DNA from: Candidatus Uhrbacteria bacterium RIFCSPLOWO2_01_FULL_47_17
GTDB lineage: Bacteria > Patescibacteriota > Patescibacteriia > UBA9934 > GWF2-40-263
Direction of reading: 5' to 3'
Length of the DNA: 64,000 nucleotides
NCBI GenBank assembly: GCA_001791305.1
Contig: MGEI01000005.1
Span: 340,208 to 404,207 of the forward strand
Below, in pieces: positions 10,528 through 63,389 of this stretch. The translations under genes and the position numbers were made by a program. Under the pieces are notes generated by a model. That model was not told where the DNA came from, made no database searches, and saw only the letters and a program-made list of their open reading frames with translations. Position 1 is the stretch's first letter. Each line of letters opens with the position of its first letter.

Positions 10528-10636
10528 TACTGTTTCCTCCTTGTTGAAATAGGTCAGTTCGACTTTCGAACTTAGGTCACGTCCGACATTCGGATATGAA
10601 CTAAGAGAAAAGGTCGTTTTTTTTAAGGTGAAACGA

Positions 10637-11632
10637 CTAGGTTCGTACGCGCACTCGCTGTGAGGATCGACGCGTGATGAGAAGAGCGATGAGGCACAGG
10701 GTGAGAAGACTTGTCGGAACAGGATTGACTCCCGTTTCCGACGCACTGCATCCCTTTTGCCGACCTTGATTTGCTTCCGGTGCGGGTTGCTGATCCGGTG
10801 GCTGATTGCTCTTTGCATTCGGATCGGCATTCTGCACGGTTGCGGGTGGTGGCGGTTCCGGCTTCTGTTCGCCGATGGGCCAGTTCGCAAGGTCCATGTT
10901 GGTGACCTCGCCAAGCCAAGCTTTCGCCACATCATCCGGCACACCCTTCAGCAGATCGTAATCCGCTTGGGCCGCATCGGCATTTGTAGTTTCTACTTGG
11001 ACAGCGGTCGCGAGCGCCTTGTTGAGAGCGATCTCATCATTCGCGCCCCAGTACTTTTGTGCCGTTTGGGAAAGCATGTGCTTGCCCGGCATTCCAATTC
11101 CGATGACATTGAGTTCGATGCGACGATTTGGACTCACAACTTCTTGTGCATACGTTTGCATCTTGGCTTTTTCATCGTCCGGTGTCGCTTCACCATCGGT
11201 GACGACGAGGAGTTTGTAATTGCCACGGTTGAACTGACGCTTTCGAACTTCGAGAAGTGCGTCCGCAGCCATCTTGATGGACGTCCCAAGCGGAGTTCCA
11301 CCATTTGGCTGGATCGCATCGATCGATGCTTTGATTGAATCCTTGTTCATCGGACCAATGGGCGTGAGCCAATCGATCGTCATCTTTCCCCAGTTGTCAC
11401 TCACGAACAGCAGAATGCCGACGTGGGTGCTTTGTGGGATTTGATCGATCACCTTCTTGAGCGCGGTCTTTGCGACCGTGATCTTGCTATCGTTACTTCC
11501 GTCGGAAATGGACTCCTTCATGGAGCCAGATCCATCGAACACGATCACGAGGTTGTCATGCGTCACCTCCTCCGCAAACGCGAGGGAGGGAATGATCAGA
11601 GCTGCAAGCACGAGTGCGAGAATCGTTTTCAT
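10637..11632 (-). CDS. Secreted von Willebrand factor A (vWA) domain protein with a C-terminal membrane-anchor / sorting-signal-like tail
   Basis: Signal peptide (MKTILALVLAALIIPSLAFA), MIDAS motif VFDGSGSM, LVVTDGEAT, a Pro/Gln-rich linker, then a C-terminal hydrophobic helix followed by RRSSQRVRVRT. Confidence 0.7.
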   Translation of the reverse strand: MKTILALVLAALIIPSLAFAEEVTHDNLVIVFDGSGSMKESISDGSNDSKITVAKTALKKVIDQIPQSTHVGILLFVSDNWGKMTIDWLTPIGPMNKDSIKASIDAIQPNGGTPLGTSIKMAADALLEVRKRQFNRGNYKLLVVTDGEATPDDEKAKMQTYAQEVVSPNRRIELNVIGIGMPGKHMLSQTAQKYWGANDEIALNKALATAVQVETTNADAAQADYDLLKGVPDDVAKAWLGEVTNMDLANWPIGEQKPEPPPPATVQNADPNAKSNQPPDQQPAPEANQGRQKGCSASETGVNPVPTSLLTLCLIALLITRRSSQRVRVRT

Positions 11633-13881: not shown

Positions 13882-14355
13882 TTATTCTGCGGGTGTTTCT
13901 GTTGGCGCTGGAGCTTCTGCTGGTTTTTCTGCCTCAGCCTTTGCGGCCTCAGCTTCTGCCTTTGCAGCTTCAGCAGCGGCTTTCTTTGCTTCTTCTTCCG
14001 CAAGTTTAGCAGCTTCTGCCTTTGCTTTCGCTGCGTCTTCTTTGGCCTTTTTATCAGCTAAATCCTTCTCCAAGTCCGCTTTTTTGCGGTCACTAATGTG
14101 AGATTTTGCGATTTTCTTTCCTTCTACGAATTTATGGTCGAGAAAGAGGTTCCAAACGGTCGGGGAGCATTGTGCGCCTTTTTCCAGCCAATGTTTGACC
14201 TGATCTGCAGCCACAACCAATGCTTTGGTTCGTGGGTTGTAGTGACCAAGGATTTCAATGGATTTTGCCCATGGATCGCGTGTTTTTGGTTGAACAATCA
14301 CACGAAAAAGAGGCGCTTTTTTCTTTCCAACGCGGGAAAGGCGAATAGTGAGCAT
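13882..14355 (-). CDS. rpsP: 30S ribosomal protein S16 with a long Lys/Ala/Glu-rich C-terminal extension
   Basis: N-terminus MLTIRLSRVGKKKAPLFRVIV; 157 aa, of which about 75 aa form a low-complexity KAEAA tail. Confidence 0.9.
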   Translation of the reverse strand: MLTIRLSRVGKKKAPLFRVIVQPKTRDPWAKSIEILGHYNPRTKALVVAADQVKHWLEKGAQCSPTVWNLFLDHKFVEGKKIAKSHISDRKKADLEKDLADKKAKEDAAKAKAEAAKLAEEEAKKAAAEAAKAEAEAAKAEAEKPAEAPAPTETPAE

Positions 14356-14470
14356 AGGGGAGGGGAAAGTGAAAGAGTGAAAAAGTGGAAGAGTGATGGA
14401 AGGGGCTTTGCTTTATATAAAAAGACAAATACCTTCACTTTTTGACTCTTTGACTTTTTGACTTTGTTTT
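14356..14470. repeat. GTGA-rich palindromic repeat element (copy 1 of 4), upstream of rpsP
   Basis: Arms gtgaaagagtgaaaaagtggaagagtgatggaagg and ccttcactttttgactctttgacttttt flank an AT-rich core. The same family occurs at 34595, 46310 and 55755. Confidence 0.55.
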
Positions 14471-15619: not shown

Positions 15620-16786
15620 ATGAAGTACAGCATCCTGTTCCTGGTGTCCTTGTTCCTTCTCGGTGCGTGCGGGACGTTCGAAGAATCGAATGCTCCGGCG
15701 CCTGCGACCGAAGAGGATTTGGAAATGGCCGAGTTTCTCGACTGCTCGGAAGTCGGTGACTGTGACGATTCGTTTCCGGACATCAACATCACGATCGAAC
15801 TCGATTGCGAGTCGGTCGATTCGAAGAAAAAAGGCGACATCTGCGTGTCGGTCTGCAACGAGTGCCAGAGCGGCTCCGACTGCATCGACACGGATGCCGA
15901 CTGGTATCCGGACACGTGCGTGACGCCCGTCGAAGCTCCGCCTGCGCGTGAACCGCCGCCGGTTTTGGTGGCTTGCGGTGGGACATTTTTTCCGCTCGGT
16001 GAACTGTGCAGTGGTGCATCCGGTGTGTGTCAGGAAAACGGCACACGCGAATGTTTCGAAGGCAAGCTCATCTGCTCGACGGATCCAAAGGGAAGCGCAT
16101 CGCTCGCGACCAATGAAGTCTGCGACGGTAAGGACAACGATTGCGACGGAGAGACGGATGAAGGTACGTCGCTCGTTTGGTACTTTCCGGACGTGGACGG
16201 TGATGGCTACGGCACAAGCGGCAATGCGCTTCTGAAGCCGGTCGAAGTCTGCACGAATGGATTGATTCCATCCGGCTACGTCTACAAAAGCGGTGACTGC
16301 GATGACAGCTACGATACAATCTACCCTGGCAAGAATTGTCCGTTTCCTGACAGTAACAGTGCATCCAAGTTGATCGTGATCCTCAAGTCATCGAAGAAGA
16401 CAAATATGGTTGGGTACGAAGATGACCCTACAACGTTCTACTTCAAGATTGCAAAGACTCTCGAGGAAGTCGCCGGCAAGTGGAGCAGTGATTATTTTCA
16501 GTTCGATACAGAAAGCGGATTCGCCGAGCTTGCTTTGAACGCGACGGATAAGTATGTCCGGTTCAACACGATCGACGCACCTGGGTGGTGGTCGACGTGC
16601 GGTGGGGCGTTCAACGCATTCAACGCAATTGATGGGGGATTCGCGCTCAATCCTAAGCTCAAGGTTTATCAGCTCAAGAACGGAGCATGGATCAACATGA
16701 CGAGCAAGGTGGAGATGTACGAGCAACCCAACGACGCAAGCAAGACCGACAGCGGTGACCTGTGCTCGGCTCTGCTCAAGCTTTAG
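15620..16786 (+). CDS. Cys-rich lipoprotein with MopE-like putative metal-binding repeats (DGxDNDCDGxxDE), paralogue 1
   Basis: Signal peptide plus lipobox LLGAC, repeated CDGKDNDCDGETDEG motifs, and a C-terminal domain homologous to that of the 16926 gene. Confidence 0.6.
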   Translation: MKYSILFLVSLFLLGACGTFEESNAPAPATEEDLEMAEFLDCSEVGDCDDSFPDINITIELDCESVDSKKKGDICVSVCNECQSGSDCIDTDADWYPDTCVTPVEAPPAREPPPVLVACGGTFFPLGELCSGASGVCQENGTRECFEGKLICSTDPKGSASLATNEVCDGKDNDCDGETDEGTSLVWYFPDVDGDGYGTSGNALLKPVEVCTNGLIPSGYVYKSGDCDDSYDTIYPGKNCPFPDSNSASKLIVILKSSKKTNMVGYEDDPTTFYFKIAKTLEEVAGKWSSDYFQFDTESGFAELALNATDKYVRFNTIDAPGWWSTCGGAFNAFNAIDGGFALNPKLKVYQLKNGAWINMTSKVEMYEQPNDASKTDSGDLCSALLKL

Positions 16787-16799
16787 TTCCTTTCAACTC

Positions 16800-16881
16800 G
16801 TTCGACCAACTTCGGAAATTCCGAAGCTGGTCGAACCTTTTTCAGAGACATCAATCAAAGTGATTGAGTGATCTGAGAAAG
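16800..16881 (+). repeat. Conserved intergenic leader unit, copy 1 (variant): palindrome, CTTTTTCAGAGA box, second hairpin
   Basis: gttcgaccaacttcggaaattccgaagctggtcgaac followed by ctttttcagaga, catcaatcaaagtgattgagtgatctgagaaag. Confidence 0.5.
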
Positions 16882-16894
16882 TTTCTGGGTTCCT

Positions 16895-16923
16895 GTTATA
16901 GGCGGGGTCCCTTGACCCCGCGG
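16895..16923. repeat. GC-rich hairpin element gttataggcggggtcccttgaccccgc (copy 1 of 3), in the 5'UTR of the lipoprotein gene
   Basis: Near-identical copies at 24106 (upstream of smc) and 22607 (inside smc). Confidence 0.5.
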
Positions 16924-16925
16924 AG

Positions 16926-18275
16926 GTGTTTTCCATGAAGTACGGAATTTCGTTTCTGGTGTCCTTGTTCCTGCTCGCGGCGTGCGAGACGACCAATGTG
17001 TACCCGACCGAGGTGGTCGAGGTACCGAAGGCGGAAACCGCGGTGAGTTGCAGTGCGGTCGATCCGACTCAGATCGAGATCAAACTCGACTGTGCGTCGG
17101 TCGGCGCGTTCCAGCACGGCGATTCTTGCATCAGCAACTGTACGCTCTGCAGCTCGCAAGAGATCTGCATCGATACGGACGGCGACAAGTGGAAGGACAC
17201 GTGCGTGCAAGGTGAGACGCCTCTTGAAACCCCGCCGGCTCACGAGCCGACGGCGACAACGGAAGCTCCGCCCGCTCGCGAACCGCCCGTCGAAGTTCAG
17301 TGCGGCGGTACGTTCGGCATGATCGGAACTCCGTGCAGTGGCGCGTTCGGCGCATGTGCGGAAAACGGCGTACTCGAGTGTGCTGACGGCGAATGGGAAT
17401 GTTCGACGGACGTGAAGGGAAGTGAATCTCTTGCGACTGTCGAACTGTGCGACGGCAAGGACAACGATTGCGACGGGGAGACGGATGAAGACTACACGTC
17501 TGACCTTGGCAAGCAGTGCTTCGGCCTGAATCAGTGCGGTCTTGGCCCGGGCGTCGTGGTTTGCAACAAGAAAGGAGAAATCGCGCAGTTGTCCTGCACG
17601 GTCGGAACCCCGTCGACGGCATATGCAACTCTGGATTCGCCGGAGCTCTGCGATGACATCGACAACAACTGCGACGGAAAGATCGACGAAGGCTGCGCGC
17701 TGAAAGTCGATCCATCCGAAGAAGACAATGACAAGGACAGTTACATGGCTCTGAATGACTGCGACGACAACGACGCGTTGATCCATCCCGGTCTCGACAA
17801 CTGCCCGACATTCCAAGGTCTGACCAAGGACAGTTACAAGCTGGTTCTGGTCTGGGGCGGAGCGGAAAACAGTCCGTACACCGCCAACGCGTATTTCAAG
17901 TTCGGAAAGAGTGCGGTCGAGTTGCAGTTCAGCTCGAAAGTGTTCTTCGACAACACGTGGGAAGTGAAAAGTTTCCCGCAATACAATTACACGGCGACGG
18001 ATCTGGAAAAGCAGTCGTCGCACGTCGCGTTCAACGTGTTCGGATATCCGGGTTACTGGTATCTGTGTTCGGGGAACGTCGTCGATACGATTTCATTCGC
18101 GCTCTCGAAGGAGCTTCCGAAGGTGTACCTCATCTCGGGCGGCGTCTGGAAGGAGGTGGGCAGCAAGCTTGAAGTGCTCGCAGCAAATGATCTCGAGGTC
18201 GTCAAAGGACCGATTTACGGCGGCGACTACAACAAGAGCAAGCCGGCCTACTGTGCAGCCATGCTGCAACTGTAA
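16926..18275 (+). CDS. Cys-rich lipoprotein with MopE-like metal-binding repeats, paralogue 2
   Basis: Signal peptide plus lipobox LLAAC, CDGKDNDCDGETDED and CDDIDNNCDGKIDEGC motifs, and a C-terminal domain paralogous to the 15620 gene. Confidence 0.6.
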   Translation: MFSMKYGISFLVSLFLLAACETTNVYPTEVVEVPKAETAVSCSAVDPTQIEIKLDCASVGAFQHGDSCISNCTLCSSQEICIDTDGDKWKDTCVQGETPLETPPAHEPTATTEAPPAREPPVEVQCGGTFGMIGTPCSGAFGACAENGVLECADGEWECSTDVKGSESLATVELCDGKDNDCDGETDEDYTSDLGKQCFGLNQCGLGPGVVVCNKKGEIAQLSCTVGTPSTAYATLDSPELCDDIDNNCDGKIDEGCALKVDPSEEDNDKDSYMALNDCDDNDALIHPGLDNCPTFQGLTKDSYKLVLVWGGAENSPYTANAYFKFGKSAVELQFSSKVFFDNTWEVKSFPQYNYTATDLEKQSSHVAFNVFGYPGYWYLCSGNVVDTISFALSKELPKVYLISGGVWKEVGSKLEVLAANDLEVVKGPIYGGDYNKSKPAYCAAMLQL

Positions 18276-18290
18276 GCTCCTTCATCAACT

Positions 18291-18377
18291 GTTCGACCCG
18301 CTTCCTGGAAGTTCCAGAAGTCGGTCGAACCTTTTCCAGAGATCCCGATCGAAGGTCGATCGAGGGATCTGAGAATG
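18291..18377 (+). repeat. Conserved intergenic leader unit, copy 2 (hairpin type A)
   Basis: Palindrome gttcgacccgcttcctggaagttccagaagtcggtcgaac, box cttttccagaga, hairpin tcccgatcgaaggtcgatcgaggga, then tctgagaatg. SD aaaggaggg follows. Confidence 0.6.
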
Positions 18378-18403
18378 TTTTGTTCAACAAAGGAGGGTGT
18401 CCC

Positions 18404-18850
18404 ATGGGTTCAACGGCAACGTCGGCGGTTGTGGTTCAACTGGAACATGAGATCGAGACCACAAAAGATCACCTTGACCAACTCAATGAGCGTTTGCGCG
18501 AGCAGACGACGGTCGGGTGGCTGGCGATCGTCAATTTCATGTTCGGCGGCAGGATTCAGTACGTCCGTATTTCGGATCGGGCCAACAATCCGTTCGATCA
18601 CTTCGACTCCTCGTCGAAACCTCACCGACAGCGCAGCTATGTGAAGGGCTGTTCCGACATTGATCAGGTGCGGGTGCTCTTTAGCGGTTGGAACGAACCT
18701 GAGTTTGAGATGAAGCTCGAAGACGGCCGCTCGCGGATTCCGGGATCGTTTGTTTTCCTAACCAACACGAACTTGGATGCGCTGACCCGGAAGGCTGAAG
18801 CTGTCCTTTCGAGTGAACGGCGCAACAAGAGTTCTGCGCTCGGTCAATAA
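18404..18850 (+). CDS. Small hypothetical protein (149 aa), cassette gene 1
   Basis: Start at M9 of the listed ORF, 6 nt after SD aaaggaggg. No recognisable motif. Confidence 0.45.
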   Translation: MGSTATSAVVVQLEHEIETTKDHLDQLNERLREQTTVGWLAIVNFMFGGRIQYVRISDRANNPFDHFDSSSKPHRQRSYVKGCSDIDQVRVLFSGWNEPEFEMKLEDGRSRIPGSFVFLTNTNLDALTRKAEAVLSSERRNKSSALGQ

Positions 18851-18853
18851 TCT

Positions 18854-18940
18854 GTTCGACCCGCTTCCTGGAAGTTTCAGAAGTTGGTCGAACCTTTTCC
18901 AGAGATCCCGATCGAAGGTCGATCGAGGGATCTGCGAAAG
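18854..18940 (+). repeat. Conserved intergenic leader unit, copy 3 (hairpin type A)
   Basis: Nearly identical to copy 2 (gttcgacccgcttcctggaagtttcagaagttggtcgaac, cttttccagaga, tcccgatcgaaggtcgatcgaggga, tctgcgaaag). Confidence 0.6.
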
Positions 18941-18982
18941 GTAATAGTGCCCGCGCAGGAATGCGTCGGCTTGGAGAGGAAG

Positions 18983-19339
18983 ATGATGACCATGCAAGAC
19001 AAAGCGGCGATGGCTGCGTTCGAGACGATTGTCGCGCGCGGGCTTGTGGGGCGTGAGGAACTGAAGCGGTGGATCGTCGATACGCACCTGGATTGGCGCA
19101 AGACTCACTTCAAGATCTTGTTTCGGAACGCCAACAACTCGCGGCGCATCGAGTGCGAAGTGCTCAACCGGCTCGAACCGCTTTCGGATGGTGGTGTGAA
19201 GATGTCGGTCGAGATCACGATGATCACGGCCGGCGCAAGCTCGCAGGTTCCGGAAAGTCCGTGGACCGATGTGCTCTTCGACGCGGACAGGCCGCGCACG
19301 GTTCGAATGAGCAGCATGCTTCGTAAGCGTGCGGCGTAA
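18983..19339 (+). CDS. Small hypothetical protein (about 118 aa), cassette gene 2
   Basis: Start at the MMTMQDK methionines, preceded by ggagaggaag. Weak similarity to cassette gene 1 (RNANN/DRANN region). Confidence 0.4.
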   Translation: MMTMQDKAAMAAFETIVARGLVGREELKRWIVDTHLDWRKTHFKILFRNANNSRRIECEVLNRLEPLSDGGVKMSVEITMITAGASSQVPESPWTDVLFDADRPRTVRMSSMLRKRAA

Positions 19340-19559
19340 AACAAGGAGTTCCGTGGAGACTGTCATCAAATGGTTTCCCGCTGCGTGTTTCTTCTTGCTT
19401 GTGCTCGTGATGCTCTTCATCACGGCGCATGTGGGAATGTGGATGTGGCCTGGCATGATCAAAACGTGGCATGGTGTCGCGTATGTGGTCACGCATCCGG
19501 CGGAAGTTGTGGTGGGCTTGCTCATCGCATTCTGTCTGCTCGCAAACGCACTCAAGTAG
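19329..19559 (+). CDS. Small membrane protein with two transmembrane helices (about 70 aa), cassette gene 3
   Basis: Two hydrophobic helices. A possible GTG start after aaggag sits at about 19353. Low confidence because an alternative overlapping frame exists (19370..19564). Confidence 0.3.
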   Translation: MRRKTRSSVETVIKWFPAACFFLLVLVMLFITAHVGMWMWPGMIKTWHGVAYVVTHPAEVVVGLLIAFCLLANALK

Positions 19560-19577
19560 TTTGAATACAGGAGGAAC

Positions 19578-19787
19578 ATGCAGATTCAGTTTCGACTGAT
19601 CAACGGACACATCGTTCGCGCGTCCTTCGAAAACAAACCTGAACTCGCCGGATTCGGCGATACGGAGGGGCAAGCGATTGCGGCACTTCTGAAAAAGGAA
19701 AAGGCTCGCAACCTTGAGCTCCAAGCGCTTTACTTCTTGTTACGCAGTTTGCTCGGTTCACATCAGGACGGGTTCCTGGTGAACTGA
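19578..19787 (+). CDS. Small hypothetical protein (69 aa), cassette gene 4
   Basis: Strong SD acaggagg 5 nt before the ATG. Confidence 0.45.
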   Translation: MQIQFRLINGHIVRASFENKPELAGFGDTEGQAIAALLKKEKARNLELQALYFLLRSLLGSHQDGFLVN

Positions 19788-19809
19788 GATTCGTTCTTTT
19801 CACAACTTT

Positions 19810-19880
19810 CCACGTCGTCTCGAAACGACGTGGCTTTTCCAGAGACTCGCATCGACAGGCGATGCGGTGATCTGCGAAAG
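19810..19880 (+). repeat. Conserved intergenic leader unit, copy 4 (hairpin type B)
   Basis: ccacgtcgtctcgaaacgacgtgg, cttttccagaga, ctcgcatcgacaggcgatgcggtg, atctgcgaaag. Confidence 0.6.
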
Positions 19881-19939
19881 TGTTCTGGTGTCTGCACATT
19901 CAATTGCCCACACTAAAACGTGTCGGCTTGGAGATAGGC

Positions 19940-20227
19940 ATGTTGTTTTTCTTTTTGTTCGATCTGGTGTGTCTCTACATCACGGGCAATACGACCATCG
20001 ATCTTTGGGCTGCCAAACTGGTTGTCGTGTTTGGTGGAACCAACCAGGTGGTGAGCATCAACTTCTTGTTCGGTTCGGTGAACATCACAGAGGAAAATTT
20101 GACGCTGTGGATGTGGATCTCAACCGCAATTACCGCTTGGATCCTTTGGGATTTGTTCAAACAGGCGCGTCACTTTTGGCGATGGTTGATGAAACAATCA
20201 CGCGACGAAGCTCAAGTAAAATCGTAG
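19940..20227 (+). CDS. Small membrane protein (about 95 aa), cassette gene 5
   Basis: Start MLFFFLFDLV after ggagatagg; multiple transmembrane segments. Confidence 0.45.
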   Translation: MLFFFLFDLVCLYITGNTTIDLWAAKLVVVFGGTNQVVSINFLFGSVNITEENLTLWMWISTAITAWILWDLFKQARHFWRWLMKQSRDEAQVKS

Positions 20228-20237
20228 ACCTCAACTT

Positions 20238-20323
20238 GTTCGACCTGCTTCGGAAATTCCGGAGCCGGTCGAACCTTTTCCAGAGACTCGCATCGAACAG
20301 GTTGATGTGGTGATCTGCGAACG
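20238..20323 (+). repeat. Conserved intergenic leader unit, copy 5 (hairpin type B variant)
   Basis: gttcgacctgcttcggaaattccggagccggtcgaac, cttttccagaga, ctcgcatcgaacaggttgatgtggtg, atctgcgaacg, then SD taaggagg. Confidence 0.6.
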
Positions 20324-20345
20324 TTTCTCGTAAGGAGGTTTATAC

Positions 20346-20708
20346 ATGGGAATGACCTTCTGGTTTTTCTTCAGCCTGACCGCCCTTTCGGGTCTTTCGT
20401 TGTTTGTCGACGAATGGCAAAACAATGATCGACTTCGGGCGTTTTTCATCAAAGAGTGGAAGGCGTTTGTTTATTCCTCGTTCTTTCACAAATGTGCGTT
20501 TGCCCTAACAGTGGCTCTCGCCATTGATCACTACAACGAAGTGTTGCCCGTGATCTCGCTCACAAGTTACGTTTGGTCCAGCTGGTTCGTTTCTCGGATC
20601 TTGAATCCAGAACTTGGCGATGACGCAACACAAGACATGTACTCGTCATACACACCCTCACTTCCAGATCCGCTTTCAAACAACCCCCATCCTCATCATT
20701 GGAGTTGA
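20346..20708 (+). CDS. Small membrane protein (120 aa), cassette gene 6
   Basis: SD taaggagg 7 nt upstream; 3-4 transmembrane helices. Confidence 0.5.
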   Translation: MGMTFWFFFSLTALSGLSLFVDEWQNNDRLRAFFIKEWKAFVYSSFFHKCAFALTVALAIDHYNEVLPVISLTSYVWSSWFVSRILNPELGDDATQDMYSSYTPSLPDPLSNNPHPHHWS

Positions 20709-20736
20709 TGCGGTTGCGTAGCGGTTCACATTCCCT

Positions 20737-20800
20737 GGCGATGTCTCATCGCCCTTTTCCAGAGACTCGCATCGATAGGCGATGCGGAGATCTGCGGAAG
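20737..20800 (+). repeat. Conserved intergenic leader unit, copy 6 (hairpin type B)
   Basis: ggcgatgtctcatcgcc, cttttccagaga, ctcgcatcgataggcgatgcggag, atctgcggaag, then SD acaggagg. Confidence 0.6.
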
Positions 20801-20816: not shown

Positions 20817-21137
20817 ATGCCCGTTCCAAACGTTTGGGATCTCATTCGGTACATCATGTGCGGACTCTTGATGGGTCTTTTCATAGTCGGCTGCAAAAGG
20901 CCTGTGGAAGAGTCTGCGGGAAAACCTGCGTACATTGCGCAGACGACTTGCTTCAAGCCTCTCAACTTCAAGGAGACCGGGAACCGCGATAATTCGCAAT
21001 GGTGCGAATACATCATTGTGGATCATCCTGAGATTCCGCCCATTTGCTGGGCAGTGGAATATCCCGATTCAACTTCCTCAACCCGGTTCGACATCTCGTG
21101 TGCCGTATTCGAAAAGGTGCAGAAGTTGAGCAAGTAA
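20817..21137 (+). CDS. Small putative lipoprotein (106 aa), cassette gene 7
   Basis: SD aggagg; signal peptide with lipobox LFIVGC; Cys-containing mature part. Confidence 0.5.
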   Translation: MPVPNVWDLIRYIMCGLLMGLFIVGCKRPVEESAGKPAYIAQTTCFKPLNFKETGNRDNSQWCEYIIVDHPEIPPICWAVEYPDSTSSTRFDISCAVFEKVQKLSK

Positions 21138-21160
21138 CGTTCACCAACTGGAGGTCTGAC

Positions 21161-21658
21161 ATGTATTGGTTTCTTCTCGGCTATCTCGTTCTCACGTTCT
21201 TCCTGAACCACATCTGTGCGCAAGTGCATCACGCTCGAGCGTGTGAGCATCCGGTTCGGAAGTCGAACATCGTGCTCGATGTCGTGACGTTCATTGCCGT
21301 TCTGTTACGTCTGCCGTTCTACGCGCTCGGCGTCGTGCTCTACAACGCTTGTTGCCTGGGTACGGTTGTCGCAGCGATGACGGACGTGATTCCAGAACAC
21401 GCAACCACGCTCTGGATCTACGTACTCGCCGATAACCTCGGCTACGCGTCTTATGCGATGCGCGAGTTCCTCGTGCTTCAATTCACGTTTCTCTCCCAGT
21501 ACGCAAAGAGCGACTGGTCGTTCACCTATTACGACTACCGCCTCGGCAACGGCAAACTGTTCAGCTTCTACGCGCAGCCGCAACACGGCCATCGCGAGCA
21601 CTACGTCGTAGGTTCGCTTTATGGGCGAATCAAAGAGGAAGAGCAGAGGCATGAATAA
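21161..21658 (+). CDS. Membrane protein (about 165 aa), cassette gene 8
   Basis: Start MYWFLLGYLV after ctggagg (M40 of the listed ORF); 4-5 transmembrane helices. Confidence 0.5.
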   Translation: MYWFLLGYLVLTFFLNHICAQVHHARACEHPVRKSNIVLDVVTFIAVLLRLPFYALGVVLYNACCLGTVVAAMTDVIPEHATTLWIYVLADNLGYASYAMREFLVLQFTFLSQYAKSDWSFTYYDYRLGNGKLFSFYAQPQHGHREHYVVGSLYGRIKEEEQRHE

Positions 21659-21697: not shown

Positions 21698-21811
21698 TGG
21701 TAACGCGCTCTGAACCTCCCCCAGCCCCTCCTTGGCAGGAGGGGTGAACGAGCTCTGTAACGTTTCGGAAAACGTTTACCTCCCCTGCCAAGGGGAGGCC
21801 GGGAGGGGTTC

Positions 21812-24103
21812 TTACCGTCTCGCCGTTCCGCCACTCGCCATCTCTTCGAGCTTCACGCTCAACAAATTACTGATGCCGTCATCTCCCATTGTCACGCCGT
21901 ACAAGATGTCCGCCTTTTCCATGGTTGCACGGTTGTGAGTCACAACAATGAACTGTGAGTTCTTCGACAAGTCATCGAGGATAGATGCAAATCGAAGCGT
22001 GTTTGATTCGTCGAGCGCCGCGTCAACCTCGTCGAGCACCACGAACGGCGCTGGATTCACGGCCATGATCGCGGAGAGAAGAGCGATCGAGGTAAGTGCG
22101 CGTTCTCCACCAGAGAGCAAGTTCAACGATTTTAATTTTTTTCCAGGTGGCGTTGCTTGAATATCAATTCCGACGACGCCGTCGTCGTACGCAGCGATGC
22201 GTTCGCGGATCGCATCCGTTTTATCACGCTCCGCTTCGCCCGTGTCTTCGAAGACGCGTTCCGGTGTGACTTCCGTCTCCTCATCGGCTTTCAAATCTTC
22301 TTTCGATAATTTGATGAGCGAACAGGATCCACCGTTGAACAGAATTTTGAAATATTTTTCGAACTCTTTGTTGATCAGAGCAAAGACTTTTTTGGATTGC
22401 GTAGCAATATCTTCGTCGAGTTCGATGACAATCTTCTCTGTCGCGTTGATCGCACTTCGTAAATCTTTTAACTGCTCATCGAGGAACTCGAAACGTTTCT
22501 TCGTATCTTCAAACTCGACCACAATCTCCGGATCGATTCCGCCGATGAGTTCGATTTTGTATCGCAAGCGCTGAATTTCAGGGTAGAGCACATCGGTATC
22601 TATCTTGTTATGGGTGGGGTCCCCAGACCCCGCCAGTGTCTGCCTGTTTGTCCTGGCTTTCACAGCAAAATTCCCCATCGCTTCATCCATTTCACGATTC
22701 AAATTTTTTTGTCGTTCATCAATGCGCGCTGCTTCGATTTGGATCGAGTTGCGTTGATTTTCGAGCAAGTGAATTTGCGTTTGCTTCTCGCGCAACTCGC
22801 GTTGCATATCGATGAGCTCGGTGCGCACTTCTTTTTCTTTTTGTGCGTACGCATCGATCTCGCGCTCTTGCTCGACGAGTTCTGCTTTGATGCGTTGTTC
22901 CTCAATCGCGAGCGAAGCTTTTTTCTCGAGGAGCGCAGGATCTGGTTTGATGTCTTCCGGATTTGGTTTGCGCAAACGTTTGTTGAGTCCGACGACTTTG
23001 TCGAGCACGCCGTCGATTGCGGTGTGAAGTGCGTCGATATCTTTCAGTGATTTTAAATTCTTAAGAAGGACATCCAGTCCGTCGATTTCCTCGACAATCT
23101 TCAACAAGGGAAGTGGCGCCCAGTTTGATTGCGCGCGCACCTTTGTCAGTTCGATTTCTTTTTCAACCTGAAACTGCGCCTGACGACACGCGTCACGCTC
23201 ACGTTGTTTCTCGCGGTACACTTTTTGCAAAGCTGCGAGTCCTGCATCTTCTCCCGTCTCCGAATTCTCAACCGCTTTCGTTCGAGTCTCGATCACCTCG
23301 AGTTCGGAGCGCTTCTCGAGAATGCGCGCATCGATTTCTGTGAACTGTGATTTGATGCCTGCGAGTTCGTCGATCAATTTCCACCAAAGTGTTCCGTAGT
23401 ACGACGTTTCCATTCCGCGCAACTCTCTTTCGACCTCCTCACGTTCCGAGAGTCTCGAAACTTGTCGCTTGAGCGAACGGAGGCGCGGTTCAATTTCCTG
23501 TACGAGCATTTCTACGTCCGTTAAATTTTCGAGTGTGCGCTTCAATTTCAAAATCGCTTCATGGCGTTTGAGCTGAAGCGGCTTTACTCCCGTCGCATCG
23601 TCGAAGAAACTTTTGCGTTCTTCGGGAGTCGACACGAGAATGTGATCGATCATCCCTTGGCCGATCACAGAGTAGGAACGTTGACCAACGTTTGCTTGTG
23701 CGAGGAGGAGTTGAATGTCCGCGAGGCGGGCACTTCCGTCGTTTAAAAGATATTCCGAGTTTCCGTCACGATAGAGGCGTCGGGTGATGGTGACCTCCGA
23801 ATAATCGATTGGCATCATCTTGTCCGAGTTGTCGAGTGTGATCGAAACTTCCGCGAAGCCACTTCGACCTCGACCTTCCGAGCCAGAAAAAATCACATCC
23901 TCGGATTTTTTTCCGCGAAGAAGTTTCATGCTTTGCTCACCCAAGACCCAGCGAATGGCGTCCGCAAGGTTGGATTTCCCCGAACCGTTTGGACCAACGA
24001 TCGATGTTAAAGGATAGCGATCCGCGGCTGGAGGAAGAAAGGATAGCGAGGTTTTTTTTGCAAAGGTTTTGAATCCTTGGACGGAGAGTTTCGACAGGTA
24101 CAT
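21812..24103 (-). CDS. smc: Chromosome segregation protein SMC, short form (763 aa) with no obvious hinge domain
   Basis: N-terminus MYLSKLSVQGFKTFAKK...GPNGSGKSNLADAIRWVLGEQS (Walker A); C-terminus LSGGERALTSIALLSA...VLDEVDAALD (signature plus Walker B). Confidence 0.8.
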   Translation of the reverse strand: MYLSKLSVQGFKTFAKKTSLSFLPPAADRYPLTSIVGPNGSGKSNLADAIRWVLGEQSMKLLRGKKSEDVIFSGSEGRGRSGFAEVSITLDNSDKMMPIDYSEVTITRRLYRDGNSEYLLNDGSARLADIQLLLAQANVGQRSYSVIGQGMIDHILVSTPEERKSFFDDATGVKPLQLKRHEAILKLKRTLENLTDVEMLVQEIEPRLRSLKRQVSRLSEREEVERELRGMETSYYGTLWWKLIDELAGIKSQFTEIDARILEKRSELEVIETRTKAVENSETGEDAGLAALQKVYREKQRERDACRQAQFQVEKEIELTKVRAQSNWAPLPLLKIVEEIDGLDVLLKNLKSLKDIDALHTAIDGVLDKVVGLNKRLRKPNPEDIKPDPALLEKKASLAIEEQRIKAELVEQEREIDAYAQKEKEVRTELIDMQRELREKQTQIHLLENQRNSIQIEAARIDERQKNLNREMDEAMGNFAVKARTNRQTLAGSGDPTHNKIDTDVLYPEIQRLRYKIELIGGIDPEIVVEFEDTKKRFEFLDEQLKDLRSAINATEKIVIELDEDIATQSKKVFALINKEFEKYFKILFNGGSCSLIKLSKEDLKADEETEVTPERVFEDTGEAERDKTDAIRERIAAYDDGVVGIDIQATPPGKKLKSLNLLSGGERALTSIALLSAIMAVNPAPFVVLDEVDAALDESNTLRFASILDDLSKNSQFIVVTHNRATMEKADILYGVTMGDDGISNLLSVKLEEMASGGTARR
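22607..22636. repeat. GC-rich hairpin element (copy 2 of 3), in-frame inside the smc coding sequence
   Basis: gttatgggtggggtccccagaccccgccag encodes LAGSGDPTHNKI within SMC. Related copies lie in the 5'UTRs at 16895 and 24106. Confidence 0.45.
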
Positions 24104-34582: not shown

Positions 34583-34594
34583 AAATAAAAAAAG

Positions 34595-34640
34595 ATCCCC
34601 CTTCACTCACTCTTCCACTCCATCACTCTTTCACTTTTCC
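34595..34640. repeat. GTGA-rich palindromic element, single-arm copy (copy 2 of 4), just upstream of ribH
   Basis: cccttcactcactcttccactccatcactctttcacttttccc matches the right arm of the element at 46310 and 55755. Confidence 0.45.
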
Positions 34641-34643
34641 CTT

Positions 34644-35045
34644 ATGTCCCACCGCATCGCTCTCGTCCTCGGATCATTTCACAAAAAAGAAGCAGACGAC
34701 ATGTTGGTCGTGGCTCATGAAACAGCGCTCGAGAATCATCTCGAAATTGTCGAGATCGTTTGGGTTCCAGGTTCCATGGAAGCGCCGCTCGCACTCAAGC
34801 GCTTGCTGATGCGCGACGACATCGACGCAGCTGTCGCGCTCGGCATTATCGAGCGCGGAGAAACCAAGCACGGGCTCGTGATGGGAGAAGTTGTGTATGA
34901 CGCAATCATTCGCCTTCAACTCGAGTTCATGAAACCAATCGGCTTCGGAATTCTCGGACCGGAAATTTTGCCGGAGCAGATCGAGAAGCGTGTAAAACCG
35001 TACGCACGCGCTGCGGTTGAGGCGGCGGCGAAAATGCTTGCATAA
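34644..35045 (+). CDS. ribH: 6,7-dimethyl-8-ribityllumazine synthase
   Basis: IALVLGSFHKKEADDML...VPGSMEAPL; 133 aa. Confidence 0.8.
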   Translation: MSHRIALVLGSFHKKEADDMLVVAHETALENHLEIVEIVWVPGSMEAPLALKRLLMRDDIDAAVALGIIERGETKHGLVMGEVVYDAIIRLQLEFMKPIGFGILGPEILPEQIEKRVKPYARAAVEAAAKMLA

Positions 35046-45941: not shown

Positions 45942-47069
45942 ATGCGCATTTTAGGAATCGAATCAAGCTGTGACGAAACCGCGATGGCGCTTGTTTCGGA
46001 AAACGAAGGCGGCATTGTGATTGAAAAAAGTTTGGTCGCATCACAAATCGATCTTCACAAAATTTACGGTGGCGTTGTGCCAGAAGTTGCGGCGCGTGAA
46101 CACGTGAGTGCTATTTTTCCAATGCTCCTCGAGATGGGTATTTCACGCGATGGTCATGAGATCGACGCTATTGCCGTGACGGCGGGCCCCGGACTTGTTG
46201 CTGCGCTCCGCATCGGCGTCGAACTCGCAAAAACACTTGCATGGATGTGGAACAAGCCGCTTGTTGCGGCGAATCACCTTGAGGGGCACGTGTATTCGGT
46301 GTGGGGGCAGGGGAGCAAGAGTGAAAGAGTGATGGAGTGTAAGAGTGAAGGTAAGGGGAAATTCTTTGATTTTATTAACAAACAAAAAAAGGTTTTTCTT
46401 CCATCACTCAACCACTCCATCACTCAACCACTCTGTCTCCCTCCCCAATTTCCCGCCCTGTGTCTCCTCGTCTCCGGTGGTCATACGGAACTTTTTCTCA
46501 TGCGTGATCATGGACAATACGAACTCATTGGTATGACGCGTGATGATGCGGCGGGGGAAGCGTTTGATAAAGTTGCGAAGCTTCTTGGACTTGGATATCC
46601 AGGCGGACCCGCTATCTCGAAGATCGCGCTCGAAGGGAACCCAAACGCGATTGCGTTTCCGCGTCCAATGATTGAAAGCGGAGATTCTGATTTTAGTTTT
46701 TCAGGATTAAAGACGGCTGTGCGAGTGTATCTCGAAGCGCATCCGGAAGCATCCGTCGCAGATGTTGCCGCGTCATTCCAACAAGCTGTCGTCGAGATTC
46801 TTACGATCAAAACGCTTGCGGCCGTCAATCAATTTTCACCTAAATCTGTTATTTTATCCGGTGGCGTCTCTGCAAATCGCGCGCTGCGAGATTTACTCTC
46901 GAGCGAACTCACGAAACAATTTCCGGATGTGACGTTTCATGCTCCAGATCTTTCACTCTCTGGCGATAACGCCGCAATGATCGCGATTGCAGGACTCTTC
47001 CGCGCAAAGCAAAAAGATTTTACAGACCCGCTTTCACTCGAAGCCCAGCCGAATCTTCGGCTGGTATAG
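45942..47069 (+). CDS. tsaD: tRNA N6-adenosine threonylcarbamoyltransferase TsaD (Kae1/Qri7 family) carrying an in-frame insertion of about 42 aa
   Basis: MRILGIESSCDETA, HLEGH, LLVSGGHTEL, GEAFDKVAKLLGLGYPGGP. The insertion sits between GHVYSVW and FPALCLLVSGGHT. Confidence 0.85.
   Translation: MRILGIESSCDETAMALVSENEGGIVIEKSLVASQIDLHKIYGGVVPEVAAREHVSAIFPMLLEMGISRDGHEIDAIAVTAGPGLVAALRIGVELAKTLAWMWNKPLVAANHLEGHVYSVWGQGSKSERVMECKSEGKGKFFDFINKQKKVFLPSLNHSITQPLCLPPQFPALCLLVSGGHTELFLMRDHGQYELIGMTRDDAAGEAFDKVAKLLGLGYPGGPAISKIALEGNPNAIAFPRPMIESGDSDFSFSGLKTAVRVYLEAHPEASVADVAASFQQAVVEILTIKTLAAVNQFSPKSVILSGGVSANRALRDLLSSELTKQFPDVTFHAPDLSLSGDNAAMIAIAGLFRAKQKDFTDPLSLEAQPNLRLV
46310..46445. repeat. GTGA-rich palindromic element (copy 3 of 4) inserted in-frame in tsaD
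   Basis: Left arm gagcaagagtgaaagagtgatggagtgtaagagtgaagg, AT-rich centre, right arm ccatcactcaaccactccatcactcaaccactctg. It is translated as GQGSKSERVMECKSEGKGKFFDFINKQKKVFLPSLNHSITQPLCLPPQ. Confidence 0.55.
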
Positions 47070-47094
47070 GTCCTATTGGTCCTATACGACTTAT

Positions 47095-55644: not shown

Positions 55645-55754
55645 CGAAGTTCCTCCTTTTTTCCGTCGGCCTGTTTTGTTGGTCGACACATGAGAATAGG
55701 CAGATTTCCACGAATTGTCAATATGACGGGGGTCTTGTACCATGAGGGGAGAAA

Positions 55755-55885
55755 ATTGGATTAATCTTAAGAAGTGAATGAGTGACTGAGTGAAAGAGTG
55801 TTGGACGGTGCGATTTATTTATTTCAAATAAATAAAAAGTTGTCTCTTTTCCTTCACTTTACCACTCCATCACTCAACCACTTTG
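55755..55885. repeat. GTGA-rich palindromic element (copy 4 of 4), upstream of the 55898 gene
   Basis: Left arm gaagtgaatgagtgactgagtgaaagagtg, central AT palindrome gatttatttatttcaaataaataaa, right arm ccttcactttaccactccatcactcaaccactttg. Confidence 0.55.
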
Positions 55886-55897
55886 CCGCCCTCTCCT

Positions 55898-56578
55898 ATG
55901 TCCCATCCACAAAAAGCTCTTCTTGATGAGTTTCAGTACGCCATTCATCATTTCGTCCCAACGCTTCCAGATGAAATCAAAGTTGAGGCACAGAAGGTGC
56001 ACGATGATTTGCTCGCCGACAAAACTGTTGACGAGGCGATTATTCGTCGTACGTTTCATGATGTTGGGGTGAAAGAGTATCCGTATCGCCATGCATATGA
56101 CGAACTCATCCATACAAAGGAAGAAGGGAAGATGAATCAGTTAGTTCTCGAACATGTGGATGATGCGGTTCGCAAAGTGATCGAACCACATTTGAATGCT
56201 GGAGTGCACCTCGACGAACTTGTGCGCAGCGATTTGCTTACGGAATCTCTGACGCCAGAACAAATCTATCAAGTGGTTGATGGAATTGCGGTTGCAAAGT
56301 CGAAATTGGGTGAAGCAATCAAGTCGCATGTAAGTGCAGATACGGCTGCGTATGATGCTTTGCTTCAAAAATGGAATGATCACGTCAAAATGATTGAAGG
56401 CAAACTCGCAGAACTTCTTGAACTTGCAAAACAAGGCGATGAAGGACAAGCGTCTGAAATTAAAGGCAAAGTGCAAATGTACAAAGAAGGATTTTTGGTC
56501 ACAGAACCAGATCCAGATGTAAAAGAAATCGACGAAGAAATTGCCTACTGGAAAGAAGCGTTTGCCGAGGAAGCTTAG
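55898..56578 (+). CDS. Hypothetical acidic helical protein (about 226 aa)
   Basis: ORF starting MSHPQKALLDEFQY. Confidence 0.45.
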   Translation: MSHPQKALLDEFQYAIHHFVPTLPDEIKVEAQKVHDDLLADKTVDEAIIRRTFHDVGVKEYPYRHAYDELIHTKEEGKMNQLVLEHVDDAVRKVIEPHLNAGVHLDELVRSDLLTESLTPEQIYQVVDGIAVAKSKLGEAIKSHVSADTAAYDALLQKWNDHVKMIEGKLAELLELAKQGDEGQASEIKGKVQMYKEGFLVTEPDPDVKEIDEEIAYWKEAFAEEA

Positions 56579-60125: not shown

Positions 60126-60163
60126 CCAAAAAGACTGTGGTTTTTGCCACAGTCTTTTGATTT
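60123..60163 (+). repeat. 41-bp direct repeat, left copy (includes the gyrA stop and a perfect terminator hairpin)
   Basis: tagccaaaaagactgtggtttttgccacagtcttttgattt, identical to 63349-63389. Confidence 0.8.
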
Positions 60164-60333: not shown

Positions 60334-60993
60334 ATGGCAAAGCAGTCTTGGAGAATCAAGCTCGAGCAATGGCTCGCGGCAAATGGTGATGAAGGCATGT
60401 CCGGAGTAGTGGATCATCTTGCGATTTTGACTCGCGCGACGAGTCTTGTTCGTAAGCCCGGATTCAAAAAAGCTCTGGAGAAATTTTTGGACGAATGGGC
60501 CGGTCTTCCCGAACAAAAGGCCGATCCGATCCTCCGTCGCCTCTTTGAAGACGAAACGATCACCATCGCTCCGTGCGACGGTTCCCGGTACGTCGCCAAA
60601 GAAAAAGGCGTGTTCAAAGCGTACATCGAAGGTCTCTTCGCAAGTTGGGGTCTCGACAAGCCTGGACAGTCCACGGTTGCCGCGAATGTCTCCGTCTACG
60701 AGATGATCCGGGACGCGACCTTCGCTCAGATGTTCGGCTCTCTCGGGCCAGATCTCGACAAACTGTGTCTCTCACAGCATCAGATCGTCGAGTTCTGCGA
60801 AACGCATTCGGCACGTCTTCGGCAAGAAGGCTACGCCACATTCTTTCTTTTTAAGGAAGGCGATCAGTTCTACGTTGCGGGCGTGCGTGTCCACGCGGGC
60901 GGCCTGAGCGTGTACGTCCGCCGTCTCGAGCGCGACGATGTCTGGTATGGCGAGTTTCGTCATCGTCTCGTAGTCCCGCAACTGACCGTTTGA
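60334..60993 (+). CDS. DGR variable (target) protein with the C-terminal VR; no signal peptide
   Basis: The C-terminal 38 codons are matched by the TR with adenine-specific differences. Residues at the variable positions are G, R, H, G, S, Y, R, R, D, Y, F. Confidence 0.8.
   Translation: MAKQSWRIKLEQWLAANGDEGMSGVVDHLAILTRATSLVRKPGFKKALEKFLDEWAGLPEQKADPILRRLFEDETITIAPCDGSRYVAKEKGVFKAYIEGLFASWGLDKPGQSTVAANVSVYEMIRDATFAQMFGSLGPDLDKLCLSQHQIVEFCETHSARLRQEGYATFFLFKEGDQFYVAGVRVHAGGLSVYVRRLERDDVWYGEFRHRLVVPQLTV
60865..60978 (+). repeat. DGR variable repeat (VR), 114 nt
   Basis: Aligned with the TR at 61294-61407 there are 16 mismatches, and every one falls at a TR adenine. Confidence 0.85.
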
Positions 60994-61057
60994 AACTTAT
61001 TCGGATGACACTTTGTTTCTTTGTCCCTTTGACTCTTTTGAGTCCGGGGGATTTTTT

Positions 61058-61293: not shown

Positions 61294-61407
61294 CAATTCT
61301 ACGTTGCGAACGTGAATGTCAACGCGGACGGCCTGAACGTGAACGTCAACCGTCTCGAGAACGACAATGTCTGGAATGGCGAGTATCGTCATCGTCTCGT
61401 AGTCCCG
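61294..61407 (+). repeat. DGR template repeat (TR), 114 nt, in the same orientation as the VR
   Basis: The adenine-rich template consists of AAC/AAT codons at the variable positions. Confidence 0.85.
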
Positions 61408-61419
61408 AAAATGAAATGT

Positions 61420-63351: not shown

Positions 63352-63389
63352 CCAAAAAGACTGTGGTTTTTGCCACAGTCTTTTGATTT
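63349..63389 (+). repeat. 41-bp direct repeat, right copy (includes the toxin stop and terminator hairpin)
   Basis: tagccaaaaagactgtggtttttgccacagtcttttgattt. Confidence 0.8.

Follow-up and report, generated by a model that had tools for sequence, protein, structure and literature searches.

A hairpin-forming repeat of tandem 8-nt units, probably translated in frame within tsaD of an Uhrbacteria genome and resembling the palindromic elements of Rickettsia

The tsaD gene and its additional segment

The window analysed in this study is a stretch of 64,000 nucleotides (nt) from the genome of Candidatus Uhrbacteria bacterium RIFCSPLOWO2_01_FULL_47_17 (contig MGEI01000005.1, positions 340,208 to 404,207), an ultra-small bacterium of the candidate phyla radiation (CPR). 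It contains tsaD, an essential tRNA-modification gene, and within this gene lies one of four copies of a palindromic repeat (Table 1). The tsaD product matches the Pfam family TsaD (PF00814, E = 2.4e-81) in two separate stretches, and also matches TsaD chains of the Protein Data Bank (PDB; E about 1e-79). Residues 1-121 pair with residues 1-120 of the PDB chain and residues 169-374 with residues 126-327, and about 47 residues (122-168) sit where solved structures have about 5. The segment lies in the variable loop that links the HxxxH helix (…NHLEGHVYSVW) to the strand that follows (FPALCLLVSGGHTE), in place of a 7-residue loop that reads SQTPTPA in the empty allele. A sequence-only reading of the window had proposed a stop-free, in-frame insertion of about 42 residues. 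This is confirmed by the intact open reading frame (ORF), with a net gain of 41 residues, or 123 nt, over the nearest orthologues with an empty site (334 residues). The tsaD frame is free of stops throughout the insert and is the only open frame there, all others being closed. The tryptic peptides of the insert include SERVMECK and VFLPSLNHSITQPLCLPPQFPALCLLVSGGHTELFLMR.

The AlphaFold model has a predicted local distance difference test score (pLDDT) below 50 for residues 124-164, compared to 85-95 in the core. The core of the model superimposes on TsaD of E. coli and Salmonella with template-modelling scores of 0.88-0.92 (normalised by the target) and a root-mean-square deviation of about 2 Å. 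Judged from these models, the insert most likely adds about 41 disordered surface-loop residues to an intact TsaD core.

An assembly artefact as the source of the insert is ruled out, because six independent assemblies, made from different samples and with different assemblers, have the identical segment. The same exact TsaD protein is recorded in the Rifle aquifer assemblies and in GCA_001791565.1. An intein was also considered as an explanation of the insert, and dropped.

Table 1. Positions of tsaD, of the parts of its in-frame hairpin, and of the four repeat copies in the window
Feature	Positions	Strand	Basis or remark
tsaD (tRNA t6A37 threonylcarbamoyltransferase), host gene	45942..47069	+	intact 375-residue ORF, Pfam, PDB, AlphaFold
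In-frame inserted segment, codons 122-168, GQGSKSERVMECKSEGKGKFFDFINKQKKVFLPSLNHSITQPLCLPPQ	46305..46445	+	gap in PDB and Pfam alignments, empty sites in relatives, low pLDDT
Left half of hairpin: G-rich foot (GGGCAGGGGAG) and purine arm of four 8-nt units, GAGTGAAA GAGTGATG GAGTGTAA GAGTGAAG	46308..46351	+	inverted-repeat arm, Tandem Repeats Finder (TRF)
AT-rich central loop with short internal stem	46352..46400	+	fold; aligns with AT-rich centres of copies 2 and 4 (family D1)
Right half of hairpin: pyrimidine arm of four 8-nt units, CACTCAAC CACTCCAT CACTCAAC CACTCTGT, then C-rich foot CTCCCTCCCC	46401..46445	+	inverted-repeat arm, TRF
Copy 1, full hairpin, second arm degenerate (GACTnnnn type)	14356..14470		repeats, pattern, TRF
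Copy 2, single arm (AT-rich tract and pyrimidine arm)	34583..34643	+	fills the ribE-ribH spacer from stop codon to ribH ATG (34644)
Copy 3, the tsaD copy	46305-46445	+	in-frame insert
Copy 4, full hairpin between divergent genes, arms 55772-55800 / 55855-55883	55744..55897		repeats, pattern, TRF

A hairpin built of tandem 8-nt units

The arms of the tsaD inverted repeat (46311-46351 and 46401-46441) are 41 nt each and 78% complementary, with 49 nt between them. The minimum free energy of the segment as RNA is -72.7 kcal/mol, compared to -42.5 +/- 3.9 kcal/mol for shuffled sequences (z = -7.7), and none of 200 shuffles was as stable. TRF found a period of 8 with 4.1 copies in the left arm (46317-46349), and periods of 8 and 16 in the right arm (46400-46433). 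The third unit of the left arm has TGT instead of the consensus TGA, and it is this unit that falls in the tsaD frame.

No intrinsic terminator (GC-rich stem plus T-run) overlaps 46305-46445, where CCCCAATTTCCCGCC comes after the right arm, and no promoter consensus lies within the tsaD copy. Reading this copy as a terminator or promoter was accordingly rejected. Against Rfam, the element gave only sub-threshold matches to generic hairpins of the miRNA-precursor type (16-37 bits, with gathering scores of 64-200), and at the gathering threshold the whole window yielded one tRNA only. An intron was likewise rejected, as the element resembles neither group I or II introns nor any other Rfam family.

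The tsaD copy does not stand alone. With up to 2 mismatches, AGAGTGAWGGAGTG has 14 matches in the window (0.68 expected), and the four-unit pattern RAGTGNNNRAGTGNNNRAGTGNNNRAGTG has six, all exact, at 14367, 34608(-), 46319, 46405(-), 55772 and 55855(-) (0.00 expected). The GTGA-rich palindromic family of four copies described by the sequence-only reading is thereby borne out. Its account of the arms as GTGA-rich is correct and can be refined: they are arrays of tandem 8-nt units, RAGTGnnn on one side and the complement on the other (TRF period 8, 3.5-4.2 copies per arm). A G-rich foot (GGGGAGGGG) and a C-rich foot (CCCCTCCCC) bracket the arms, the termini are conserved, and the element measures about 115-135 nt. 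Copies grouped as family D1 are 62-78% identical over 78 nt, including the feet and the loop beside the unit.

The copies lie in the contexts that had been claimed for them. Copy 1 adjoins rpsP (13882..14355, minus strand, Pfam Ribosomal_S16), where its foot reads CCCCTCCCCT-ATG on the minus strand with the ATG at 14355..14353. The single arm of copy 2 lies between ribE (Pfam Lum_binding) and ribH (34644..35045, Pfam DMRL_synthase). The C-rich feet of copy 4 touch start codons on both strands, ATG 55898 on the plus and ATG 55743 on the minus strand; the gene starting at 55898 encodes a 226-residue protein without a Pfam match.

Empty and filled tsaD sites in relatives

We aligned 30 close TsaD homologues and compared the DNA of 7 of them (handles beginning with P denote proteins and those with L denote DNA sequences). 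The alignment delimits the insert to residues 122-168. The nearest relatives, P0004-P0007 (89-90% identical), read W-SQTPTPA-FPA and have an empty site, as do P0011-P0014, and the DNA of L007 shows the empty allele. A homologous insert occurs at the same codon position in P0002, P0003 and P0009, and a more diverged one in P0015 and P0019. At this very codon P0010 (L012) and P0008 (L013) carry palindromes that are unrelated to it. All filled alleles fold as long hairpins (-42 to -73 kcal/mol). Carriers of the homologous insert thus keep the palindrome, and we found no relatives that conserve the segment as protein without it. When the insert columns were left out of the TsaD tree, the window allele grouped as sister to the two alleles whose palindromes are unrelated, next to the clade with empty sites, and the alleles with 8-mer hairpins fall in three separate clades. 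The empty sites in sister lineages would be either excisions or sites that were never filled. Comparison of the empty L007 allele with the filled window allele showed no target-site duplication at the tsaD junctions; the element replaces the whole variable loop.

The window and L008 share 0.82 of their nucleotides in the insert and 0.81-0.84 in the flanking 60 codons. The insert DNA has diverged like its flanks and should therefore be about as old as the split between the two lineages. In contrast, the protein identity is only 0.60 in the insert and 0.88-0.92 in the flanks. The segment is much less conserved than its host protein, and its amino-acid sequence is hardly constrained.

A word-indexed protein search with the concatenated element translations was empty, yet phmmer found P0001 (E = 2e-22) and P0003 (E = 8e-7). 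The word-indexed search thus missed a protein with 48 residues identical to its query (phmmer E = 2e-22), and its negative result was not used.

Other palindromes were seen in the TsaD proteins of these relatives. Two further loops contain short GC-rich in-frame palindromes, such as CCCTCTCC…GGAGAGGG, which is read as PSPSxGEG. The unrelated palindrome of L012 (tsaD at 10001-11101) belongs to a family GCGTCATCC…GGAGATCC…GGATGACGC, read as …GEILRSAQDDA…, and this family is also found in an intergenic position upstream of ribH in L009 (455-540). The palindrome of L013 (tsaD at 599-1747) belongs to another family, GAGTCATTGCGAGCG…CGCAATGAC, read as …SLRAE…IASS…PRNDN…; the protein P0057 is listed with these families. 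Peptides of the …GEILRSAQDDA… and …SLRAE… types are common in metagenomic 'hypothetical proteins', and these palindromes may be widespread repeat families that are read as protein.

Reading frame and translation

The unit GAGTGAnn contains TGA, and a period of 8 puts this TGA in any given frame at every third unit. In all homologous tsaD alleles the TGA of the in-frame unit has been changed, to TGT in the window, TGG in L008 and GTTA in L009 and L010. For comparison, the intergenic copy 4 has three stops in the frame equivalent to that of tsaD.

Copies within other genes show the same property. In the geranylgeranyl/farnesyl diphosphate (GGPP/FPP) synthase of L192, residues 298-334 stand in place of 8 residues in PDB 7mxz, in frame and stop-free. 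The site is empty in its closest relative, P0122 (90% identical), P0123 carries a related insert, and no target-site duplication was found at the GGPP synthase (GGPPS) junctions when empty L244 was compared with filled L192. Compared with solved structures, PheT of L020 carries an 8-mer array in the variable B2-B3/4 linker, again in frame and stop-free. A different 8-mer is in frame and stop-free in a CCA-enzyme-like ORF of L020, as judged from the ORF reading only. The L192 GGPPS and L020 PheT copies were found by DNA pattern, and hence without gene-calling bias.

Open frames in intragenic copies favour read-through of the element, because excision or bypass needs no open frame. This bears on the alternative that the element is removed or skipped, either by being cut out of the mRNA (in the manner of an intron, or through RNase III cleavage and subsequent ligation) or by translational bypass, such that mature TsaD would lack the 41 residues. 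A near-duplex of about 40 bp with a stability of -72.7 kcal/mol would be a natural RNase III substrate. Moreover, bacterial 23S rRNA loses hairpin intervening sequences by excision, and bypass elements are known from T4 gene 60 and some yeast mitochondria. Yet all intragenic copies that were examined keep the reading frame and lack stops, with the TGA replaced specifically at the in-frame unit; similarity to introns or Rfam families is lacking; and neither the take-off/landing codon pair nor the in-frame stop typical of bypassing is present. We know of no such mRNA ligation pathway in bacteria. Removal of the element is thus very improbable. Of the two outcomes that the sequence-only reading had offered, a tolerated loop and removal at the RNA level, our results favour the former.

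Genome-specific variants and conserved complementarity

The five homologous tsaD inserts show double compensatory changes at 16 of 41 predicted pairs, for instance GAGTG/CACTC to GAGTT/AACTC. The units themselves differ by genome (GAGTGATG, GAGTTATG, GGTGTTGA, GAGTCGTT, CACGCCCT). The variant GGTGTTGA of L011 occurs at four loci, namely in tsaD, in the tsaD-tsaE spacer, upstream of ftsH and at one more, and the variant GAGTCGTT of L012 occurs in both the ribE-ribH and tsaD-tsaE spacers. Variants are common to a genome and differ at orthologous sites, which indicates that the copies are homogenised within genomes. This is the behaviour of a propagating or gene-converting repeat and is no proof of selection on structure; the covariation arises in part because the family variants are genome-specific. 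The copies would spread or be homogenised at the DNA level, by transposition or by gene conversion between copies.

Some spacers are occupied in several genomes. The ribE-ribH spacer of L012, orthologous to the site of copy 2, contains a full hairpin of a different 8-mer type. In L011 and L012 a full 8-mer hairpin spans the tsaD-tsaE spacer from stop codon to start codon. The same spacer in the window (47063-47094) has a small hairpin only, GTATAGGTCC-TATT-GGTCCTATAC (TRF 9-mer x2.4). In L007 (15990-16130) the spacer orthologous to the site of copy 4 contains a different hairpin, whose pyrimidine arm repeats about every 10 nt (AACTTCTCCC AACTTCTCAA AACTTGTTTT AATTTCTCAA) and extends as far as the same MSHPQK start. 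The site of copy 4 is thus persistently occupied, but by diverged sequence.

Intergenic copies and start codons

Intergenic copies often take up the whole spacer between the stop codon of the upstream gene and the start codon of the downstream one. For at least 11 copies, drawn from several genomes, the distance from the end of the pyrimidine arm to the ATG of a long ORF is 6-17 nt, and in many of them the C-rich foot continues straight into the ATG. The genes concerned are rpsP, ribH and the 55898 gene in the window, ribH and smc in L012, ftsH in L011, and genes in L143, L172, L217 and L238. The element-adjacent genes lack a Shine-Dalgarno (SD) motif. A simple SD motif is found upstream of only ~19 of 54 long ORFs in the window, and at least one start (32823, minus strand, TATACTATAATCATCT-ATG) has a TATAAT-like box 6 nt before the ATG, which suggests that leaderless or SD-independent initiation is common in this organism.

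Two apparent regularities were set aside. A common orientation of the copies relative to transcription was rejected as trivial: a palindrome reads purine arm and then pyrimidine arm on both strands, and the orientation of full copies is therefore uninformative, so that only single-arm copies can inform. The T at -1 before the ATG of 9 of 11 element-adjacent starts is not meaningful, since T is common at -1 across the genes of the window.

The main alternative explanation would be that the hairpin is a selected cis-acting structure of RNA or DNA and not mere selfish DNA. Its intergenic copies would set the initiation, translational coupling, mRNA processing or stability of the flanking genes, and the tsaD copy would be a by-product or an internal site (a ribosome pause or an RNase III site) whose peptide would still be translated. 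This would be consistent with the complementarity maintained in the five tsaD alleles, with the diverged hairpins at orthologous spacers (ribE-ribH in the window and L012, tsaD-tsaE in L011 and L012, the copy 4 site in L007), and with spacers filled from stop to start before genes without an SD motif. In our own reading of the sequences, the unit GGAGTGAT also resembles the extended SD sequence GGAGGTGAT. However, concerted evolution or re-insertion of genome-specific variants can mimic covariation, and in tiny spacers any surviving element adjoins genes. About two thirds of the window genes have no clear SD motif anyway, and the closest relatives do without the tsaD copy, in which there is neither a consensus promoter or terminator nor an Rfam family match. 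Selection for a cis-acting structure therefore seems unlikely as the main explanation. The placement at start codons may reflect a function or a mere lack of other free space.

Distribution beyond the window

A scan of a genome collection with RAGTGNNNRAGTGNNNRAGTGNNNRAGTG proved too general, as many of the matches listed are unrelated tandem repeats from many phyla. Among the matches listed, L020 and L079 (both Uhrbacteria), L093 and L126 were useful, and the window's own genome did not appear. The CPR matches listed for the arm pattern come from Uhrbacteria, Peribacteria and Saccharibacteria only. A metagenome scan with the 20-nt arm core CACTCCATCACTCWWYCACT listed mostly one-sided tandem arrays, 11 matches with an inverted partner, and none from the window's species; those listed include full hairpins with the same termini on contigs of 50-67% GC. 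Going by the organisms named for the nearest relatives of its GGPPS, the L192 host is a planctomycete of the Phycisphaerae. Hence the family is not confined to CPR bacteria.

These matches also bear on the possibility that the palindrome arose in place, by 8-nt slippage followed by fold-back or template-switch copying, with similar sequences as independent products. Tandem-array arms are a slippage-prone substrate, the unit sequences differ between genomes, and target-site duplications are absent. Furthermore, 'empty' alleles contain short periodic traces, ACACCTACACCT in tsaD of L007 and GAGCGGTG-GAGCGATC in GGPPS of L244. Yet copies at unrelated loci share more than the unit: the feet and loop are similar too in family D1, and the termini are conserved. 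The 20-nt arm core with its inverted partner recurs in organisms of 50 to 67% GC, including a planctomycete, and an independent origin in each is implausible. We consider local origin highly unlikely.

Some further arrays were observed in these sequences. In the Phycisphaerae relatives of GGPPS (P0127, P0135, P0137, P0165) the same loop holds unrelated low-complexity inserts, for instance SSPQASSPQASSPQASS in P0127; like the TsaD loop, it is one permissive loop that collects different repeats. L020 has 8-nt arrays of the units AGGGCGTG / CACGCCCT combined with a GC-rich palindrome (4380-4560 and 2740-2900). One of them is in frame near the N-terminus of the CCA-adding-enzyme-like ORF (…GRIKHALTPSRPHALLVGGFVRD…), and another adjoins the ATG of a TrmB-like gene (…CCCCCCTCCT-ATG).

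Other repeats in the window

The window also contains repeats of other kinds. A degenerate 8-nt array of TGACTCTT x4 at 61006-61038 may be a decayed single arm. A direct repeat of 121 nt (60865-60985 and 61294-61414) is 85% identical, with its copies 429 nt apart, and an identical 30-nt terminator-like palindrome, AAAAGACTGTGGTTTTTGCCACAGTCTTTT, occurs at 60129-60158 and 63355-63384. A GC-rich palindrome of 100 nt (21712-21811; two 50-nt arms, 74% complementary, no spacer, CCTCCCC/GGGGAGG motifs) lies between the convergent ORFs 21044..21658 (+) and 21812..24103 (-), and resembles the short GC-rich in-frame palindromes seen in TsaD loops of the relatives. Another, separate family of repeats (D2, D5, D7, D9) at 16793-20800 consists of units of 47-92 nt with two hairpins each, e.g. 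GTTCGACCAACTTCGGAA/TTCCGAAGCTGGTCGAAC. These units occupy the spacers of a run of paralogous genes (15620..16786, 16926..18275 onward), whose 5' ends are repeated as well (D6, D10).

A translated and tolerated repeat copy

Our results are best explained if the tsaD segment is a translated, tolerated in-frame copy of a family of hairpin repeats similar to the Rickettsia palindromic elements (RPEs), a reading that we hold to be probable. The segment would be one copy of a dispersed repeat of the RPE kind that is short, does not code for protein and forms a hairpin. Its plan would comprise a G-rich foot, 3-5 tandem RAGTGnnn units, a variable loop, the complementary units and a C-rich foot. Such repeats would mostly occupy the very short spacers of a compact genome, and some would sit at the rare spots in essential proteins where added residues do no harm. 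The tsaD copy would be transcribed and translated with its gene, giving a disordered excursion of about 41 residues beyond the native loop that the enzyme tolerates. The peptide itself would be constrained only to keep an open frame and a self-complementary DNA or RNA.

Several points weigh against this explanation. Insert and flanking DNA have diverged equally from the window to L008, which is easier to reconcile with long vertical residence than with a recent insertion. Hairpins that last at orthologous spacers and keep their complementarity could mean a selected function rather than selfishness. Mobility is putative, as no target-site duplication was found at the tsaD and GGPPS junctions. 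In the 64-kb window, where no transposase search was made, we found neither a pair of terminal inverted repeat and transposase nor a gene of the RAYT type (transposases associated with repetitive extragenic palindromes). When the 47-residue insert peptide was compared with 1.84 billion representative proteins by HMMER, it was found in no other host protein, matching only the unrelated repetitive P0121; this negative is weak, as it covers a single frame and the clusters at 50% identity hide insert-bearing variants. The TsaD alleles come from a protein database that favours intact ORFs, so that only the L192 and L020 cases are unbiased. Translation of the tsaD insert is suggested by frame and stop statistics only. 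That the insert is actually translated and harmless we nevertheless infer as part of the explanation preferred here, a tolerated copy of a dispersed repeat.

A broader idea can be put forward with less confidence. The 8-nt-periodic hairpins might be functional intercistronic modules shared across phyla, in which a purine arm (near the extended SD sequence) and a pyrimidine arm (near the 16S 3' end) between stop and start would control initiation, coupling or processing of the downstream gene. A dedicated, hairpin-specific mechanism would copy or convert them, and copies landing in permissive loops of essential enzymes would regularly supply CPR bacteria and planctomycetes with new protein segments. 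We regard this combination as speculative and quite doubtful.

To our knowledge, in-frame palindromic repeats in essential genes are textbook matter for Rickettsia only. The CPR and planctomycete cases indicate that they are more general in bacterial genomes than recognised. For the annotation of metagenome-assembled genomes, this means that odd low-complexity segments such as 'SERVMEW…SLHHSIT' within proteins that are otherwise conserved are repeat DNA and not new domains. The inserts also mark insertion-tolerant protein loops; in TsaD, three loops hold several palindrome families. In addition, the family offers a tractable case for studying the spread of hairpin repeats that have no transposase and the persistence of the 8-nt period in their arms, and the intergenic copies against the starts of genes without an SD motif provide a testable lead on translation initiation in CPR bacteria.

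Comparison with known repeat systems

Our literature searches turned up neither an account of such repeats in CPR bacteria nor one of hairpin repeats with an 8-nt period. The family itself is undescribed, while its kind is known. What goes beyond the sequence-only reading is the 8-nt periodicity, the repeated use of one loop by several palindrome families, the genome-specific variants and the occurrence in a second phylum.

Hairpin elements of organelles have, as far as we know, no link to bacteria. The GC clusters of yeast mitochondria and the repetitive hairpin-forming elements of sponges (PMC2800124) are likewise short hairpin repeats that invade very compact genomes. They differ in being organellar and in their sequence and architecture.

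Repetitive extragenic palindromes (REPs) are extragenic by definition, and affect the mRNA stability and translation of neighbouring cistrons. Like REPs and bacterial interspersed mosaic elements, the repeats studied here are hairpins in the intercistronic spacers of operons with genome-specific variants. However, REPs measure 20-40 nt and carry GTAG or CGTC tags (PMC3733652). Our elements have about 115-135 nt, with G- and C-rich feet and copies within ORFs, and thus fall outside that definition in length, tag and location.

Miniature inverted-repeat transposable elements, or MITEs, have terminal inverted repeats that match a parent insertion sequence, and they make target-site duplications. 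Those known as Correia/NEMIS, ERIC, BOX, RUP, QMITE1 and the Anabaena elements resemble our family in size, in forming long hairpins in transcripts and in lying near gene starts. Occasional intragenic, in-frame copies of MITEs are reported as well (PMC10969869). In contrast, neither the tsaD nor the GGPPS junctions show a duplication, and our element consists entirely of a single palindrome of tandem units.

The closest resemblance is to the RPEs, whose families were reportedly described by Ogata and colleagues in 2000 and 2002. As summarised in PMC10969869, RPE-1 to RPE-10 sit in frame within many Rickettsia genes and are considered compatible with the folds of the host proteins. Set beside this account, the analogy with RPEs drawn by the sequence-only reading is apt. 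Both are palindromes of ~100-150 bp, here forming a long hairpin, which occur between genes and in frame in unrelated, often essential, genes of a small compact genome. Both are read through, or appear to be, as an extra peptide at a position compatible with the fold (here in tsaD, the L192 GGPP synthase and L020 PheT), and both come without a transposase or a clear signature of terminal inverted repeats and target duplication. The differences are equally clear. The arms of our element are tandem 8-nt units with genome-specific sequences, and its intergenic copies characteristically reach start codons. In close relatives, several unrelated palindrome families occupy one and the same protein loop, and the hosts are Uhrbacteria and a planctomycete instead of Rickettsia, the genus to which the described RPE sequences belong. 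There is no evident sequence relationship, the two being set apart by the 8-mer architecture and not by a comparison of consensus sequences. By this likeness in form and placement, the element is best regarded as an analogue of the RPEs and not as one of their members.

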